A stretch of DNA of 64,000 nucleotides from Escherichia coli (GTDB taxonomy: Bacteria; Pseudomonadota; Gammaproteobacteria; Enterobacterales; Enterobacteriaceae). Shown here piece by piece: positions 4,272 to 34,348 of this stretch. Under the pieces are notes generated by a model that was not told the DNA's origin, did no database searches, and saw nothing but the letters and a program-made list of their open reading frames with translations. The stretch is taken from NCBI RefSeq assembly GCF_029227855.1, contig NZ_CP074356.1; one strand, 5' to 3'. The position numbers and the translations under genes are program-made. Position 1 is the first letter of the stretch. Every line of letters begins with the position of its first letter.

Positions 4272-5165
4272 ATGCAAAGCACTATCAGGAAACATTTATC
4301 CCTTGCTAAGGTAAACTCAACTATGAGTATTATTATCAACAACTGGCGGATGGACCCGTCGCTTAATGCCTTAATACATTGCGAAACGGGTGAAACACGT
4401 CGTCTCGGCGAATACCATTTTATTTTGCTGGAAACATTAGCAAAAAATGCCGATGTGGTTTTATCGCGATCTTATTTATGTGCCGAAGTATGGAAGAACC
4501 GCATTGTCGGCGGTAACAGCCTGCCGACGGCGATCCACGCTCTGCGCGTTGCCATTGATGATGACGGCAAGCAACAGAACATTATTAAAACTATCCCGAA
4601 AAAAGGGTACCTGTGCAATAAAGAGTATGTGTCTTTGCCGGAGTCATCGCCTGCGGAAGCGCTGATTATTACCGACCAGATACAGGAAACAGTACCAGAA
4701 GAGATATCTTCTACAACACCGCCTGTGCCTGTTAGAAAAAAACATAAAGGACTGATGGGGTTAGCGTTGACCGCGGCTGTTATATTTATTGGCTCGACCG
4801 TGGGGTATTCACACTTGAAAAGTACACCTGACGCCCCGCAACTGGTAAAAGAGTCAATTAACAGTCCAAGAATAAAAATATTTCATCTTAGTTCTGGAAA
4901 AGAAAATAATTCCGCACCGTTACTGTCACAAACCCTCGCACCAGGAAAAGACAAACTCGATAATTTATTGTCAGCGCATAATATGACAATGACAACCTAT
5001 TATAAATATGTTCGTAACCGACTGGAGAGTGATATTGTTCTGCGCAACCAGTGCAATGGTAGCTGGCAATTAACCTTTAATGTGGATGAGTGGCAGAATA
5101 GCGATATTAATAGCGCGATGTATCAGAATTTAGAGAAGTTGTTAAATACTGTGCAGAAATGCTGA
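4272..5165 (+). CDS. ToxR/CadC-like membrane-anchored transcriptional regulator (winged-helix OmpR-type DNA-binding domain, one TM segment, periplasmic domain); possibly the Flag-2 lafZ
   Basis: ORF track; N-terminal region ...YLCAEVWKNRIVGGNSLPTAIHALRVAIDD... resembles trans_reg_C winged helix; hydrophobic stretch GLMGLALTAAVIFIGSTVGY; AT-rich gene and upstream region. The true start may be the ATG at 4323. Confidence 0.6.
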   Translation: MQSTIRKHLSLAKVNSTMSIIINNWRMDPSLNALIHCETGETRRLGEYHFILLETLAKNADVVLSRSYLCAEVWKNRIVGGNSLPTAIHALRVAIDDDGKQQNIIKTIPKKGYLCNKEYVSLPESSPAEALIITDQIQETVPEEISSTTPPVPVRKKHKGLMGLALTAAVIFIGSTVGYSHLKSTPDAPQLVKESINSPRIKIFHLSSGKENNSAPLLSQTLAPGKDKLDNLLSAHNMTMTTYYKYVRNRLESDIVLRNQCNGSWQLTFNVDEWQNSDINSAMYQNLEKLLNTVQKC

Positions 5166-5180
5166 CGAGTGCCAATATCA

Positions 5181-5213
5181 GCCGGATGCGACGCTAAAGG
5201 CGTCTTATCCGGC
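5181..5213. repeat. REP (repetitive extragenic palindromic) element
   Basis: gccggatgcgacgctaaaggcgtcttatccggc, close to the enterobacterial REP consensus; sits between convergent genes. Confidence 0.6.
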
Positions 5214-5219
5214 TGATAA

Positions 5220-6197
5220 TTACCCCAATAAATTCCTCACCGTCTGACTGGAAATTCGCGCCTGACCATTCACCGCCTGCAATAAAACTTGATAGTTATG
5301 ATTGGCGCTATCCAGCACGCCGCCGAGATTTTCCGACGCCTGCACGGCGCTTTCCGTTTGCGGGAAGCGCGACATGCCGTCGATCAACTGCCGCGCCTTT
5401 TCCTGCTGTACCGCCATCTGCACACGCTGCTGATTAATGCTTTCTAACGTCTGAGAAATCCCCGCTCCGCCCTGTTGCAGGCTTTGCACTAAGCGGTCCG
5501 CCTGCGACGGTTCGGCAAAGGTTTTTAGTGGCATAAACGCTGATTTATCACCATCGGTGCGCACGCTTAGGGTGCTTTCAATGTTGGGCCACTGTTTTTC
5601 AGTGGTGGAGAAACTTATACCATCGGCGTTTTGATGCATCTGCACGCCCACGCGGCGCAGGGCGTTGGTCAGCCGCGTCTGGTACTGCCCAGCGCTGTCA
5701 TCCTCAGACAGCATCACCGCCGAAAGCTGAGTCTGCCGCCCGTCAGAGACGCTGAACATGCGCGTTCCCGGCGTGGGATTGTGTACGAGATTCGCCAGAT
5801 CCGGCGAGTGAAAAGTCACCCGCGCTTCCCCCTGCAACACTGGCTGCAACTGGCGGTCCACCGCACCGCCGGAAAGCGCGGTGCGTTTGTCCAGCATCTG
5901 CATCAGCGCCGAACTCTGCGCCTGCCCGCCCTTACGCTGGCTATGACGATAATCGAGCAACTGCTGCTCCAGTTGCCCGAGATAGTGATCCGCCTGCTGC
6001 AACGTGGTGAGCTGGTCGTTAAGCTGCACGCTGTAACGCTGCGGGCGAGTGGTAATCAGCGGCGAGGCCGGATATTCACTCGCCGTCGCCGGGAGTTTTT
6101 GCCGCACCTCCTGAGTGGGCGCAACGGTTGACGACGATACCGCAACGCTATGCGCGCCGCCGGTGGCGAGTGACGAAGATGTAAATCCGACCTGCAT
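5220..6197 (-). CDS. hypothetical Flag-2 protein, 325 aa, with flagellar axial-protein-like C-terminus (possibly lafW)
   Basis: ORF track; C-terminus ...NHNYQVLLQAVNGQARISSQTVRNLLG resembles the C-terminal helix of flagellar export substrates; directly downstream of flgL in the same orientation. Confidence 0.4.
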   Translation of the reverse strand: MQVGFTSSSLATGGAHSVAVSSSTVAPTQEVRQKLPATASEYPASPLITTRPQRYSVQLNDQLTTLQQADHYLGQLEQQLLDYRHSQRKGGQAQSSALMQMLDKRTALSGGAVDRQLQPVLQGEARVTFHSPDLANLVHNPTPGTRMFSVSDGRQTQLSAVMLSEDDSAGQYQTRLTNALRRVGVQMHQNADGISFSTTEKQWPNIESTLSVRTDGDKSAFMPLKTFAEPSQADRLVQSLQQGGAGISQTLESINQQRVQMAVQQEKARQLIDGMSRFPQTESAVQASENLGGVLDSANHNYQVLLQAVNGQARISSQTVRNLLG

Positions 6198-8534: not shown

Positions 8535-8610
8535 GTTGGATCCTTACCGGTAAATCGTGCCGGTTAAAAGCGGCGTTAGGTTGGGGATTCTTAAGTGGGA
8601 GGTGGTGCCC

Positions 8611-8910: not shown

Positions 8911-10025
8911 CAGATCACCTCCAGGTCGGCATCCAGCGCGCCCGCCTCATGCAGCGCCTGCAAAATCGACATAATGTCATCCGGCGTCGCGCCTAAACTG
9001 TTCAGCGCATTGACCAGCGTTTTCAGGCTGCTCGACTCCGGCAAACTCACCACGCCCGGACGGGCATGATTCACCGCGATATTGCTCTGCGGCGTTACCG
9101 CCGTGCGCCCGCCCGCAAACGCATTCGGCTGGCTGACGTTGCTGGTTTCGTTAATCGAGACGGTCAAACTGCCGTGCGACACCGCCGCCGCGTGCAGCGC
9201 GACGCCATCGCCCATCACCACCGTGCCGGTACGCGAGTTAAACACCACGCGGGCGTGGATTTTCTCCGCCTGCACCTGTACGTCATCCAGTTGCGACATA
9301 AACGCCACCCGCGCGCCGGGGCTGGTCGGCGCACGCACAGTAACGTTGGTGGAACTCTGCGCCGTGGCAATGCCGCCAAACGAGGCGTTGATCGCCGCCG
9401 CAATGTTGTTGGCGTCTTTAAACGACGGGCGTTTCAGGTTGAGGGTGATGGTATCGCCCATCTGAAAATCGCTGGGGATCTCGCGCTCCACCGTTGCGCC
9501 GTTAGGAATTAACCCGGCGGTTGGTGTATTAACCGTTACGCTCGAGCCGCTTGCCCCGGTGGCATTCATCCCACCCACCACCACGCTGCCCTGCGCCAGG
9601 GCATATACTTCGCCATCCGCGCCGTGCAACTGCGTAAGCAATAAAGTGCCGCCGCGAATACTTTTGGCATCTCCAATCGACGAAACGGTGACATCAATAG
9701 TCTGCCCGCGCGAGTACATCGGCGGCAATGTGGCGCTCACCGCCACTGCGGCGACGTTTTTCACCTTCGGGTCGATTTTATTCGGCAACTGCACGCCAAA
9801 CTGGCGCAGCATATTGGTGATGGTCTGGTTGGTGAATTTGACCTGGTTTTTATCACCGGTACCGTCGAGGCCGACCACCAGGCTGTAGCCGACCAGTTGG
9901 TTTTCACGCACGCCCTGTACGTTAACCAGCGACTCCAGCGATTGCGCCAGCGCCACGCCGGGCAGCGTCAGACTTACGGCGATCGCTGCGGCCTTTATCC
10001 AGTTTTGCATTGCACTCTCCGGCAT
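8910..10025 (-). CDS. lfgI: flagellar P-ring protein FlgI (Flag-2 LfgI)
   Basis: ORF track, 371 aa with signal peptide; FlgI family by eye; start/stop overlaps with neighbours. Confidence 0.9.
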
Positions 10026-10690
10026 TAAATCGGGAACAGAGGATGGTTAAACAACCGCGTCAGCCAGCCTGCGGCGTTGGCGTCGCTTAACGCGCCGCGT
10101 CCGGCATAGGAGATGCGGGCGTCGGCGATCCGCTGGGAGGAAACCGAGTTATCGTTCTGGATATCATCGGCGCGCACAAGGCCGCTTAAACGGATGTACT
10201 CATCGCCCTGGTTGAGGGTGAGCCATTTTTCGCCGCGAATTTCCAGGATGCCGTTGGGCTGCACCGCATGGACGGAAACAGTGATCTCCCCGCGCAGGCT
10301 GTTCTGCTGCTGGGAAGTGGCGCTGCCGTCAAAGTCGCGGTTCGCGTCGATGGAGCCGGAAAGCTTATCTTTGGTGTGACCAAAAATCGTCGGCGCGCCG
10401 ATGTTGACGGTGTTGTTTTTGCCGAAGTTGGTTTTCGCCTGTTTGCTCGACTGGGTGGATTCTTCGAGGATCACCGTCAGGATATCGCCCACGCGGTAAG
10501 CTCGCCGGTCGGCGGTGAGCGACCAGTTGTAGCCGGTTTCAAACACGCCCCCGGCACGCCCGTCTGCCGGAGGCGGCTCTTCGGTTTTCGGTGGCGCAAA
10601 GTATGCGTCGTCTTTTTTGACCAGAATGGCCTGCGATTCACACCCGCTAAGCAGGGGAAACAGCGCCACCAGCCAGAGATAATTTTTCAC
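10025..10690 (-). CDS. lfgH: flagellar L-ring lipoprotein FlgH (Flag-2 LfgH)
   Basis: ORF track, 221 aa; lipobox LLSGC; FlgH family. Confidence 0.9.
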
Positions 10691-10731
10691 GTTCTGCCTG
10701 TTTTAAATACAGTGAGTTATGCGCTTTTGTA

Positions 10732-10763
10732 GGTCGGATAAGACGCGTCAGCGTCGCATCCGA
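10732..10763. repeat. REP-like palindromic element in the flgG-flgH intergenic space
   Basis: ggtcggataagacgcgtcagcgtcgcatccgac; reverse complement resembles the REP consensus. Confidence 0.5.
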
Positions 10764-10772
10764 CATTTCGCC

Positions 10773-11558
10773 TTACAGCGTCTGGCTGATGTACTGCAAC
10801 ATATCGTCCGCCGCCGACACCATTTTGGCGTTCATCTCGTACGCGCGTTGCACCGTAATCATCGCCACCATTTCGTTGACGATATCCACGTTCGATCCTT
10901 CCAGCGCGTTGTCCTGCAAGGTGCCAAGCCCATCTTCACCCGGCACCCCTTCGGTCGGCTGGCCGCTGGCGGCGGTTTCCAGATAGAGGTTGTCACCCTC
11001 GGCAGAAAGCCCCGCCGGGTTAGCGAAGTTAACCAGCGTCAGTTGCCCTAACTCGGTCACGTCGCTGTCGCCAGGTAAGATCGCCGTCACCGTGCCGTCC
11101 TCACCAAAAGCAACATTAGTCGCCCCCGCCGGAACGTCGATTTCCGGCTGTAACGGCAAGCCTTGCGAGTTGGTCAGCACGCCGTCGGCGTTCACCTGCA
11201 AGTTGCCGTCGCGGGTATAGGCGATATCGCCGTTGGCCTTTTGCACCTGCAAAAACCCCTGCCCCATAATGGCGACATTCATCGCGTTGTCGGTGGTTTC
11301 AACGTTGCCTTCGGTGAAGGTTTTCTGAGTGCCGACAATGCGCACGCCGCTACCGAATTGCAGCCCGGTCGGCATGATGTTGTTCTGGTCGAGCATCGCG
11401 CCCGGCGCTTCCTGGGTCTGGTAGAACAGATCCTGAAACATCACCCGGTCGCGCTTGAAGCCGGTGGTGTTAACGTTGGCGATGTTGTTGGCAATCGCGC
11501 TCATTTCAGCATCCTGCGCCGAGAGGCCGGTTTTGCTGATCCATAATGCTGCGTTCAT
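10773..11558 (-). CDS. lfgG: distal rod protein FlgG (Flag-2 LfgG)
   Basis: ORF track, 261 aa; MNAALWISKTGLSAQDAEMSAIANNIANVNTTGFK... typical FlgG. Confidence 0.9.
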   Translation of the reverse strand: MNAALWISKTGLSAQDAEMSAIANNIANVNTTGFKRDRVMFQDLFYQTQEAPGAMLDQNNIMPTGLQFGSGVRIVGTQKTFTEGNVETTDNAMNVAIMGQGFLQVQKANGDIAYTRDGNLQVNADGVLTNSQGLPLQPEIDVPAGATNVAFGEDGTVTAILPGDSDVTELGQLTLVNFANPAGLSAEGDNLYLETAASGQPTEGVPGEDGLGTLQDNALEGSNVDIVNEMVAMITVQRAYEMNAKMVSAADDMLQYISQTL

Positions 11559-11584
11559 GGTGGTTTATTCCCTGGTGTCTGTTA

Positions 11585-15066: not shown

Positions 15067-15082
15067 GGCAATTACCGTGCCA
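15067..15082 (-). promoter_or_regulatory. candidate sigma54 (-24/-12) promoter for the flgB operon
   Basis: Minus-strand sequence TGGCACGGTAATTGCC matches TGGCACG-N4-TTGC; in the short divergent flgB/flgA intergenic region. Confidence 0.55.
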
Positions 15083-29893: not shown

Positions 29894-30676
29894 ATGCGCA
29901 CAAGCGACGTTACGCAACTGATGGATCTGGCGCTGGGGCTGTGGTTTCCCTTCGTGCGCATTATGGCGTTTCTGCGCTATGTGCCGGTGCTGGATAACAG
30001 CGCCCTGACCGTGCGCGTGCGGATTATTTTGTCGCTGGCGCTGGCAATCATCATCACGCCGTTGATCCCCCATCCCATTCCCCACGATCTGCTTTCACTC
30101 AACAGCCTGATCCTGACGGTGGAGCAAATTTTATGGGGCATGTTGTTCGGGCTGATGTTTCAGTTTCTGTTTCTCGCGCTACAACTGGCCGGACAAATTC
30201 TCTCGTTCAATATGGGGATGAGCATGGCGGTGATGAACGACCCGAGCAGCGGCGCATCGACCACCGTGCTGGCGGAGTTAATCAACGTCTATGCGATCCT
30301 GCTGTTTTTTGCCATGGACGGGCATCTGCTGCTGGTAAGCGTGCTGTATAAGGGCTTCACCTACTGGCCGATTGGTAACGCGCTGCATCCGCAAACCCTG
30401 CGCACCATCGCGCTGGCCTTTAGCTGGGTGCTGGCGTCCGCATCACTGCTGGCGCTGCCGACCACCTTCATCATGCTGATTGTGCAGGGCTGCTTTGGCC
30501 TGCTCAACCGCATCGCGCCGCCGCTGAACCTCTTTTCGCTCGGCTTTCCCATCAACATGCTGGCGGGGCTGGTTTGCTTTGCCACCCTGCTCTACAACCT
30601 GCCGGATCACTATCTGCATCTGGCGAATTTTGTGTTGCAGCAACTCGACGCGCTGAAAGGTCACTATGGCGGATAG
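29894..30676 (+). CDS. lfiR: export apparatus protein FliR (Flag-2 LfiR)
   Basis: ORF track (29843-30676); start at ATG 29894 immediately after the fliQ stop; polytopic membrane protein. Confidence 0.85.
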   Translation: MRTSDVTQLMDLALGLWFPFVRIMAFLRYVPVLDNSALTVRVRIILSLALAIIITPLIPHPIPHDLLSLNSLILTVEQILWGMLFGLMFQFLFLALQLAGQILSFNMGMSMAVMNDPSSGASTTVLAELINVYAILLFFAMDGHLLLVSVLYKGFTYWPIGNALHPQTLRTIALAFSWVLASASLLALPTTFIMLIVQGCFGLLNRIAPPLNLFSLGFPINMLAGLVCFATLLYNLPDHYLHLANFVLQQLDALKGHYGG

Positions 30677-31805
30677 CAGCAGCGAAGAAAAAACAGAGAA
30701 ACCCTCGGCGCAAAAGCTGCGTAAAGCGCGTGAAGAGGGGCAACTGCCGCGCTCGAAGGATATGGGGCTGGCAGCGAGCCTGTTTGCAGCGTTTGTGGTG
30801 ATCTCCAGCAGTTTTCCGTGGTATGCCGATTTTGTGCGCGAGAGTTTTATCAGCGTGCATCAGTACGCGCAGGAGATTAATAACCCGCAGGTGATCGGTC
30901 AGTTTCTGCGCCACCACCTGTTAATTCTCGGCAAGTTTATCCTTACGTTGCTGCCGATGCCCGCCGCCGCGCTGCTCTCTTCGCTGGTGCCGGGCGGCTG
31001 GCTGTTTCTGCCGAAAAAAATCCTCCCGGATTTCAGCAAAATTAGCCCGTTAAAAGGCATTGGGCGTCTGTTTTCCAGTGAACATCTGGCGGAAACGGGA
31101 AAGATGACGGTGAAGTCTGCCGTGGTGCTGGTGATGCTGTGGGTAAGCCTGCGCAATAACTTTGCCGCCTTTCTCGGCCTGCAGGCGCTGCCGTTCAAAC
31201 TGGCGATGAATGACGGTTTGTCGCTCTACGCCAGCGTGATGCGCAACTTTGTCATCCTGTTTATTTTCTTTGCGCTTCTCGACGTGCCGCTGGCGAAAGC
31301 CCTGTTCACCAAAGGGCTGAAGATGACCAAACAAGAACTGAAAGAAGAGTACAAAAATCAGGAAGGCAAGCCGGAAGTGAAGGCGCGCGTGCGGCGGCTG
31401 CAACGGCAGCTGGCGATGGGGCAAATTCGCAAAGTGGTGCCAAAGGCCAACGTGGTGATCACCAACCCGACCCACTACGCCGTGGCGTTGCAGTATGACC
31501 AGTCGCGTGCCGCCGCGCCGTTTGTGGTGGCGAAAGGCACCGATGAAATCGCCCTCTATATTCGCCAGGTCGCTGCTGAAAGTCAGGTGGAAGTGGTCGA
31601 GTTCCCGCGGCTGGCGCGCTCGGTTTACTATACCACTCAGGTGAATCAGCAAATTCCTTTTCAGCTTTACCGGGCTATCGCCCACGTTCTGACCTACGTC
31701 CTGCAAATGAAACACTGGCGCGAGGGCGCACAGCCGCGCCCGGCCCTGAACAGACATATTTCCATTCCCAAAGAGGTGCTTAAACTGGATGGCGAAAACA
31801 ACTAA
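30666..31805 (+). CDS. lfhB: export apparatus protein FlhB (Flag-2 LfhB)
   Basis: ORF track, 379 aa; conserved NPTH autocleavage motif (…VVITNPTHYAVAL…). Confidence 0.9.
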   Translation: MADSSSEEKTEKPSAQKLRKAREEGQLPRSKDMGLAASLFAAFVVISSSFPWYADFVRESFISVHQYAQEINNPQVIGQFLRHHLLILGKFILTLLPMPAAALLSSLVPGGWLFLPKKILPDFSKISPLKGIGRLFSSEHLAETGKMTVKSAVVLVMLWVSLRNNFAAFLGLQALPFKLAMNDGLSLYASVMRNFVILFIFFALLDVPLAKALFTKGLKMTKQELKEEYKNQEGKPEVKARVRRLQRQLAMGQIRKVVPKANVVITNPTHYAVALQYDQSRAAAPFVVAKGTDEIALYIRQVAAESQVEVVEFPRLARSVYYTTQVNQQIPFQLYRAIAHVLTYVLQMKHWREGAQPRPALNRHISIPKEVLKLDGENN

Positions 31806-33918: not shown

Positions 33919-34314
33919 ATGACGTCAGGGATTGATAAGATGATGAAAACGCGTTTATTAATATCTCAAGCATCGAACATTATCACCATTAAAGGTCAAC
34001 CAGCCGCAGTGACATTTGAAGCCGATATCAACGCATTTCGCGGCAAATTTCTCAATGTAAATGGTTATTGCGACTTTGTAGCGACAAGCATTGAGGCGTT
34101 ATACCGGGAAGGTGAAAGTGCGCTGGATGAGTGGATGGCGGATTGTGAAGAGGACGGCATTGCCCCTTTTCGTGAAGAAGAGCAAAAACGCCTGACGCTT
34201 CGTGTTCCTCATCACATCGATTCACGACTGACCATTGTCGCCAGACAACATTCCATTTCAAAAAATCAGCTCATTGTTGATGTATTAGAACGTGAGTTTT
34301 CATCCCAGATGTAA
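33919..34314 (+). CDS. HicB-like/ribbon-helix-helix small protein (orphan antitoxin-like), 131 aa
   Basis: ORF track; C-terminal ...RLTLRVPHHIDSRLTIVARQHSISKNQLIVDVLERE resembles RHH (CopG/Arc) DNA-binding motifs fused to a HicB-like fold; no HicA-like partner seen nearby. Confidence 0.45.
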   Translation: MTSGIDKMMKTRLLISQASNIITIKGQPAAVTFEADINAFRGKFLNVNGYCDFVATSIEALYREGESALDEWMADCEEDGIAPFREEEQKRLTLRVPHHIDSRLTIVARQHSISKNQLIVDVLEREFSSQM

Positions 34315-34319
34315 ACAGG

Positions 34320-34348
34320 TCGGATGCCGTGTGGCATCCGATTTTTTT
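34320..34348 (+). terminator. Rho-independent terminator
   Basis: Hairpin tcggatgcc-gtgt-ggcatccga followed by ttttttt directly after the 131-aa ORF stop. Confidence 0.8.

Follow-up and report, generated by a model that had tools for sequence, protein, structure and literature searches.

The REP between malE and malF of E. coli reportedly stabilises mRNA (Newbury et al. 1987), its block to 3' exonucleases being said to favour the upstream segment of the message. REPs and BIMEs of this species bind gyrase, IHF and Pol I, and BIME/REP clusters are reported to attenuate transcription in a Rho-dependent manner (Espeli et al. 2001). K-12, the strain in which REPs were catalogued, retains only remnants of the Flag-2 (lateral-type) flagellar gene cluster. 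The E. coli REP/PU elements are imperfect palindromes of about 37 bp that are extragenic, present in many copies and found inside operons (Higgins et al. 1982; Stern et al. 1984), and a REP whose distance from a stop codon is below 16 nt reportedly lowers translation of the gene upstream of it (Liang, Rudd and Deutscher 2015, as related in PMC12306157). Palindromes and intergenic regions go unmentioned in the main comparative paper on Flag-2 (PMC6993521), and the literature that we searched contains no paper linking flgG, flgH and a stem-loop in enterobacteria.

Here we analyse a REP-like palindrome between flgG and flgH of a Flag-2 cluster. The 64,000-nucleotide stretch of DNA in which it lies (the window) is a segment of an E. 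coli chromosome that carries a complete cluster of this type, and over 50 kb its sequence agrees with that of strain JNEC-KY178 at 99.95% identity.

The flgG-flgH spacer and its operon

The genes flgD, flgE, flgF, flgG, flgH, flgI, flgJ and flgK are consecutive on the minus strand of the window, and all match their own NCBIfam models above or near the cut-off. The distal rod protein gene flgG (lfgG; 10773–11558, minus strand; TIGR02488 FlgG, 2.3e-105) ends with a UAA stop codon at 10775–10773, and flgH (lfgH; 10025–10690, minus strand; NCBIfam FlgH NF009072, 2e-129), which encodes the L-ring lipoprotein, begins with GTG. The intergenic spacer between them (10691–10772, minus strand) is exactly 82 bp long, and the limits of both genes are identical in the RefSeq annotation of a 99.95%-identical strain. 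Just before flgH lies AACAGGCAGAAC (10691–10702, minus strand), which is likely the ribosome-binding region and is conserved from Escherichia to Citrobacter (alignment A1). The flgG-flgH spacer is one of just three real spacers in the flgB-L operon of Flag-2.

A pattern scan located a sigma54-like site, TGGCACGGTAATTGCC, upstream of flgB in the flgB/flgA divergent region (15067–15082, minus strand; one mismatch to TGGCAC-N5-TTGCW). This site is a candidate promoter of a flgBCDEFG-REP-HIJKL transcript, and its position fits a single LafK/sigma54-type transcript running through the REP. No match to the FliA (sigma28) consensus was found between 7000 and 15300. The gap itself contains no sigma70-like promoter on either strand and no sigma54-like site on its minus (coding) strand, and an internal flgH promoter was rejected on these scans. 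The earlier expectation that flgG and flgH are co-transcribed therefore agrees with a site upstream of flgB and a gap free of promoter- and terminator-like sites, and flgB-L looks like one sigma54-driven operon that contains the REP. Elsewhere in the cluster, flhB of Flag-2 (30666–31805) is an intact 379-codon open reading frame in the window and is frameshifted according to the RefSeq annotation of NZ_AP045174.1, a sequence that differs from the window by 7 mismatches and 3 indels over 50 kb.

Identity of the REP element

The palindrome is a genuine copy of the common E. coli REP repeat, because the identical 37-mer is present outside Flag-2 in thousands of E. coli genomes. It is a single REP unit of 37 bp at 10729–10765 that reads GTAGGTCGGATAAGACGCGTCAGCGTCGCATCCGACA on the plus strand and UGUCGGAUGCGACGCUGACGCGUCUUAUCCGACCUAC in the sense of the minus-strand transcript. 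Inverted-repeat arms and RNA folds place the 5' arm of the transcript's hairpin, GUCGGAUGCGACGC, at 10751–10764, the 3' arm, GCGUCUUAUCCGAC, at 10733–10746 and a 4-nt loop at 10747–10750 (all minus strand), so the sequence-only reading, which had put a REP-like palindrome at 10732–10763, had the right structure and missed the arms (10733–10764) by one base. The arms are 14 nt each and 86% complementary, so that the palindrome is imperfect. The GTAG end of the unit lies at 10729–10732 on the plus strand, and the unit has the GATGCG...CTTATC core that is typical of the family. The core GATGCGACGC...GCGTCTTATC is the same in the REPs of sister loci. The whole unit is contained within the 82-bp spacer, 3' of a gene.

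By megablast the 37-mer has a match in 4,215 of 5,426 complete E. coli genomes, only 1,270 of which have the flagellar junction; the 37-bp core alone, mostly at 100% identity, is found in about 3,000 further genomes without Flag-2, and the 37-mer is thus not confined to Flag-2 loci. Near-identical copies occupy a median of 2 places per genome, and a related REP that is presumably of the Y type occupies a median of at least 39 places per genome, these counts being lower bounds in 2,657 records. In a strain of the K-12 lineage (O16:H48) an identical 37-mer is found between phnK and phnL, and the REP in the gap is about 86% identical to copies in neighbouring Flag-2 spacers of sister strains that we take to be of the Z type. 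A chance palindrome is ruled out by these exact copies elsewhere together with the stability of the fold (z = -6.2, see below). Rfam gave no known RNA family other than a sub-threshold match to naRNA4 (REP325-derived, RF02564), which scored 34.1 bits against a gathering threshold of 59.5 bits (E = 3e-4). The gap of the window holds one REP only and is not a BIME; BIME-like arrays are present in other alleles and spacers (L002, L007, L012 and L015). The RefSeq record of MG1655 has no repeat features at its phn or flg regions, hence no official REP name is available. The element is in sum a previously uncatalogued but unremarkable REP that has every family feature that could be tested.

The REP could also act at the level of DNA, by binding gyrase, IHF or Pol I or by serving as a substrate of a RAYT. 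Binding of all three proteins by E. coli REPs and BIMEs, and the presence here of the GTAG end that RAYT transposases use, are in keeping with such a role, but the described binding concerns REPs in pairs (BIMEs), and there is a single unit here. The vicinity of the locus showed no RAYT gene; the candidate open reading frame at 33919–34314, whose position we take to be that of K-12 yafM, proved to be HicB-like. We regard a DNA-level role as very improbable.

Two further hairpins of the window may be recorded here. The only other REP that regex scans found in it, CCGGATGCGACGCTAAAGGCGTCTTATCCGG at 5182–5212, lies between the convergent ends of a gene for a Trans_reg_C-type regulator (4323–5165, plus strand) and a hook-associated-like gene (5220–6197, minus strand). 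Directly 3' of the HicB-family open reading frame, at 34320–34348, is a hairpin, TCGGATGCC-GTGT-GGCATCCGA, followed by TTTTTTT; it looks like an intrinsic terminator, and its stem appears similar to the outer stem of the REP.

Fold of the spacer RNA

A 42-nt RNA around the REP folds into a 13-bp interrupted stem with a free energy of -20.8 kcal/mol (z = -6.2), and none of 200 shuffled sequences was as stable; the whole 82-nt spacer RNA has -25.6 kcal/mol (z = -3.8). The stem starts 8 nt past the UAA of flgG and ends 42 nt ahead of the GTG of flgH. On its 3' side the transcript reads CUACAAAAG, without a U-run, so the hairpin (CUACAAAAGCG follows it) is not an intrinsic terminator, and a terminator scan of the minus strand of the gap found no site. 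The suggestion that the palindrome is a partial terminator fails on these two results. A wider form of it holds that the element lowers flgHIJKL transcription as a partial terminator or Rho-dependent attenuator, as BIME/REP clusters reportedly do, and the 82-nt gap is indeed untranslated; but, besides the missing U-tract and the empty scan, the window has a single REP in place of a BIME, and only about 42 nt of unstructured RNA lie ahead of flgH. Such attenuation is, in our estimate, very improbable.

The position of the stem bears on translation as well. A ribosome terminating on flgG could collide with the hairpin and stall, and FlgG would then be lowered by way of tmRNA and mRNA cleavage. 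The 8 nt between UAA and stem can be read directly from the sequence, the hairpin is stable, and the spacing lies within the distance of less than 16 nt at which REPs were reported to lower upstream translation (Liang et al. 2015, via PMC12306157); that distance rule is second-hand, and we judge a translational brake on FlgG unlikely as the explanation of the element.

Repeats in the operon among E. coli strains

The census of spacer alleles, in which each allele with 100-bp flanks served as query, accounts for all 1,270 of the 5,426 E. coli genomes that have the junction. A repeat is present in the flgG-flgH spacer of all 1,270, no allele is repeat-free, and every allele is strongly structured. 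The REP-bearing allele is found in 1,077 genomes, 205 of which also have a 121-bp insert nested in it, and 193 genomes (15%) have an unrelated GC-rich repeat of 206–271 bp, CCCTCTCCC...GGGAGAGGG. The core of the 121-bp insert is single-copy and occurs at this site only, in the 205 E. coli genomes and in E. whittamii, so the insert is not a dispersed mobile element. A 21-bp direct repeat, GCGTCAGCGTCGCATCCGACA, which duplicates the right half of the REP, flanks the insert on both sides (L002 492–694; also L008 and L009). Within the insert lies an inverted REP-like unit with another palindrome, GTGGACGG...CCGTCCAC, in its loop. The window allele may derive by deletion from the allele with the insert, or vice versa. 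The GC-rich repeat, which we take to resemble the 'Box C' of E. coli, takes the place of the whole spacer, as one to several copies of CCCTCACCC...CCCTCTCCC-N-GGGAGAGGG...GGGTGAGGG (for example L003 492–697 and L004 492–762; also L007 and L012), and this palindromic repeat is itself dispersed across E. coli genomes.

Other spacers of the operon vary in a similar way. The two rod genes flgF and flgG are separated in the window by a REP-free spacer of 26 bp (11559–11584), which is a minority allele; of about 1,274 E. coli genomes with this junction, 1,159 (~91%) have one or three REPs there and a spacer of 78 or 178 bp. The flgJ-flgK spacer of the window (8535–8610) is free of repeats, and those of sister Escherichia loci (L006, L007 and L012) have two REPs or the GC-rich repeat. 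Since REPs are present in some loci and absent from others at flgF-flgG, flgG-flgH and flgJ-flgK, REP occupancy of this operon is fluid, and it is about as frequent at the rod-rod junction as at the rod-ring junction. One of these loci, L006, is from a metagenome-assembled genome named 'Citrobacter sp.' whose proteins are 99–100% identical to those of E. coli and whose REPs are of the E. coli type. A possible late promoter (sigma28/LafS-type), CTTAAGAA...CGCCGCT(C)TT, lies just upstream of flgK and is conserved from Escherichia to Citrobacter.

Flag-2 loci of other species

Among species-representative genomes a scan found 80 loci of Flag-2, of which 79 allowed the flgG-flgH gap to be measured. 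The gap is short (8–39 bp, and 8–34 bp in all but two) and without stable structure in 46 of these, among them Yersinia, Kluyvera, most Enterobacter, C. koseri, Rosenbergiella and Tatumella, and this is likely the ancestral state. The other 33 have hairpins (minimum free energy of -11 kcal/mol or lower, the cut-off used at all junctions) of about ten unrelated sequence types, which include ERIC-like inserts. Hairpins were found at 41 of 76 flgJ-flgK and 9 of 79 flgF-flgG junctions, and at 0 of 76 flgE-flgF, 2 of 80 flgH-flgI and 2 of 78 flgI-flgJ junctions. At the last three the genes overlap or nearly abut, and large or structured gaps are confined to junctions without gene overlap, apart from the 0–2 loci at each other junction.

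The nearest clade to E. coli, with FlgG identity of 92% or more, consists of the Citrobacter freundii group and C. amalonaticus, and both have a Citrobacter-type REP at the same flgG-flgH position. The Citrobacter and E. coli spacers have GAAATG[T/C]CGGAT...ATCCG in common, as well as the flgH ribosome-binding stretch AA[C/T]AGGCAGAAC (alignment A1), which argues that the REP site is orthologous in the two and older than E. coli. Comparison of orthologous loci had been proposed as one way to judge the element, its absence elsewhere counting against a role; absence holds in part, since 46 loci have an unstructured gap and 33 have hairpins, among them the orthologous Citrobacter REP.

A second recurrent structure, GGGCGGAAG-loop-CTTCCGCCC, lies 5–12 nt past the flgG stop codon in seven Erwiniaceae-like loci (L053, L057, L058, L080, L081, L083 and L085, at about 1905–1965; Pantoea, Erwinia and Izhakiella-like). 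Its pairwise identity is 0.79–0.86 in the arms, 0.26 in the loop and 0.33–0.40 in the flanks. It occurs once per 4.6-kb locus, and its sequence is unrelated to REP.

Several individual loci deserve mention. The gap holds a structured insert of 118 bp in Yersinia alsatica and one of 235 bp, with an ERIC/IRU-like core, CCCCTGTCACTTACTTAAGTAAATGACGGGGG, in Enterobacter sp. R1 (L054 and L061). L020, which is titled Chryseobacterium sp. 18061, is an enterobacterial Flag-2 locus near-identical to that of Citrobacter sp. 18056 (L019), and its assembly is probably mislabelled or contaminated. The flgG-flgH spacer of K-12 Flag-1 (L087 1513–1564, 52 bp) has a small hairpin, AACCGGTG-gcaggtt-CACCGGTT, followed by TACTGATTTTTG; this hairpin is not significant against shuffled sequences (z = -1.6).

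Discussion

The measurements above describe a stable hairpin at a site that differs among strains and species, and the question is what, if anything, maintains it. In our judgement the flgG-flgH REP is quite probably an ordinary passenger repeat in a permissive spacer, with modest side effects at the RNA level. The different repeats found at flgG-flgH, flgF-flgG and flgJ-flgK look like the pattern of permissive sites, and tolerance of the spacer for repeat insertions would be the main reason that the REP persists. The REP, or a predecessor at the same position, would already have been present in the Flag-2 lineage common to Escherichia and the Citrobacter freundii group.

As for the side effects of such a passenger, transcription of the operon would produce the stable hairpin 8 nt past the flgG stop codon. 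By analogy with malE-malF, the hairpin may hinder 3'-to-5' exonucleases, which would protect the upstream flgB-G RNA after endonucleolytic cleavage, and an mRNA-stabilising or dosage role of the REP is in this sense plausible. The 8-nt distance between stop codon and stem suggests in addition a reduced translation of FlgG, if the spacing rule related in PMC12306157 applies. Protection from exonucleases and reduction of translation would have opposite effects on FlgG. The spacer would also uncouple translation of flgH from that of flgG, since a gap of 82 nt does not allow translational coupling of the kind possible with the 8-nt gaps of other genera.

Two observations run counter to a passenger repeat: all 1,270 E. 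coli alleles are structured, and the arms of the Erwiniaceae-like hairpin are conserved. Both appear to fit selection better than pure neutrality. As far as the sequence of the REP itself is concerned, selection and homogenisation by other REP copies cannot be separated as causes of its conservation. These observations also support a different explanation, in line with the idea of the sequence-only reading, according to which a stem-loop 3' of flgG is selected so that flgB-G RNA, which encodes type III-exported rod and hook proteins including the abundant FlgE, outlives flgH-L RNA after RNase cleavage; the REP would then be merely the local source of a hairpin. Besides the absence of any repeat-free allele in E. 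coli and the seven Erwiniaceae-like loci, in which arms are kept and loop and flanks are randomised, it draws on the roughly ten unrelated types of stable hairpin in 33 of 79 species-level loci, on the small hairpin after flgG in Flag-1 of K-12 and on the reported behaviour of the malE-malF REP. Against it, 46 of the 79 loci have unstructured gaps of 8–39 nt, REPs are about as frequent at flgF-flgG, where there is no rod/ring distinction, the K-12 Flag-1 hairpin is not significant, and any permissive spacer will accumulate hairpin-forming repeats. FlgG and FlgH are moreover needed in similar numbers, basal-body cryo-EM structures having about 24 copies of FlgG and 26 of FlgH. We consider such partition of the message doubtful.

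A broader version would have the stem-loop 3' of flgG as a recurrently acquired and maintained feature of flgB-L operons that marks an RNA-processing boundary between type III-exported rod and hook genes and Sec-exported ring genes, with REPs co-opted for the purpose in E. coli. The forms of this boundary would be REP in Escherichia and Citrobacter, GGGCGGAAG/CTTCCGCCC in the Erwiniaceae-like loci and other hairpins elsewhere. We hold this to be less likely still than partition of the message as such.

The sequence-only reading thus stands in its description of the element as a REP in an apparent operon, and it lacks support in the role given to the element, a differentiation of rod and ring gene dosage. 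Against that role speak, besides the missing U-run, the REPs between the rod genes flgF and flgG in about 91% of the E. coli genomes, the unrelated repeat at flgG-flgH in 15% of the strains and the unstructured gaps in 46 of 79 loci of other species.

By itself one REP matters little: it adds a copy to the best-known family of intergenic repeats in bacteria, and it lies in a gene cluster that in E. coli is frequently cryptic. The strains nonetheless amount to a natural experiment of modest value, in which flgG-flgH of one and the same operon is filled by a REP (with or without a nested insert) or by another repeat. Together with flgF-flgG spacers with or without a repeat, these flgG-flgH alleles are a ready allele series with which to study how intercistronic REPs act on mRNA decay and on translation near termination. 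Selection of the recurrent hairpin 3' of flgG, if real, would point to a level of stoichiometry control not so far recognised in the operons of the flagellar basal body.

Comparison with known systems

The element in the flgG-flgH spacer agrees with the E. coli REP/PU elements (Higgins et al. 1982; Stern et al. 1984) in all the general properties given at the outset, in the GATGCG...CTTATC core, in the CCTAC/GTAG end and in the exact sequence of other chromosomal copies. It departs from the commoner units in its outer stem, GTCGGA/TCCGAC, which in neighbouring Flag-2 spacers is more often GCCGGA or GCCTGA, and this presumably Z-like variant has about 5 differences in 36 positions from the Z-type copy in L006. 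Compared with nrdA-nrdB type REPs, which lie less than 16 nt from a stop codon, the flgG REP at 8 nt is within the distance for ribosome stalling (Liang et al. 2015, via PMC12306157), whereas its Citrobacter orthologues lie at 16 nt. The naRNA4/REP325 system has the REP hairpin in common with this locus, but REP325 comprises several REPs and gives rise to a nucleoid-associated RNA, and here there is one unit. The REP between phnK and phnL of the K-12-lineage strain is a 37-mer of 100% identity that is likewise intra-operonic, in a different operon. At malE-malF, as at flgG-flgH, a REP without a U-tract lies between two cistrons of one operon; malE-malF has two REPs and experimental proof, whereas flgG-flgH has a single REP, and the products of flgG and flgH, unlike those of the malE-malF case, are needed in similar copy numbers.
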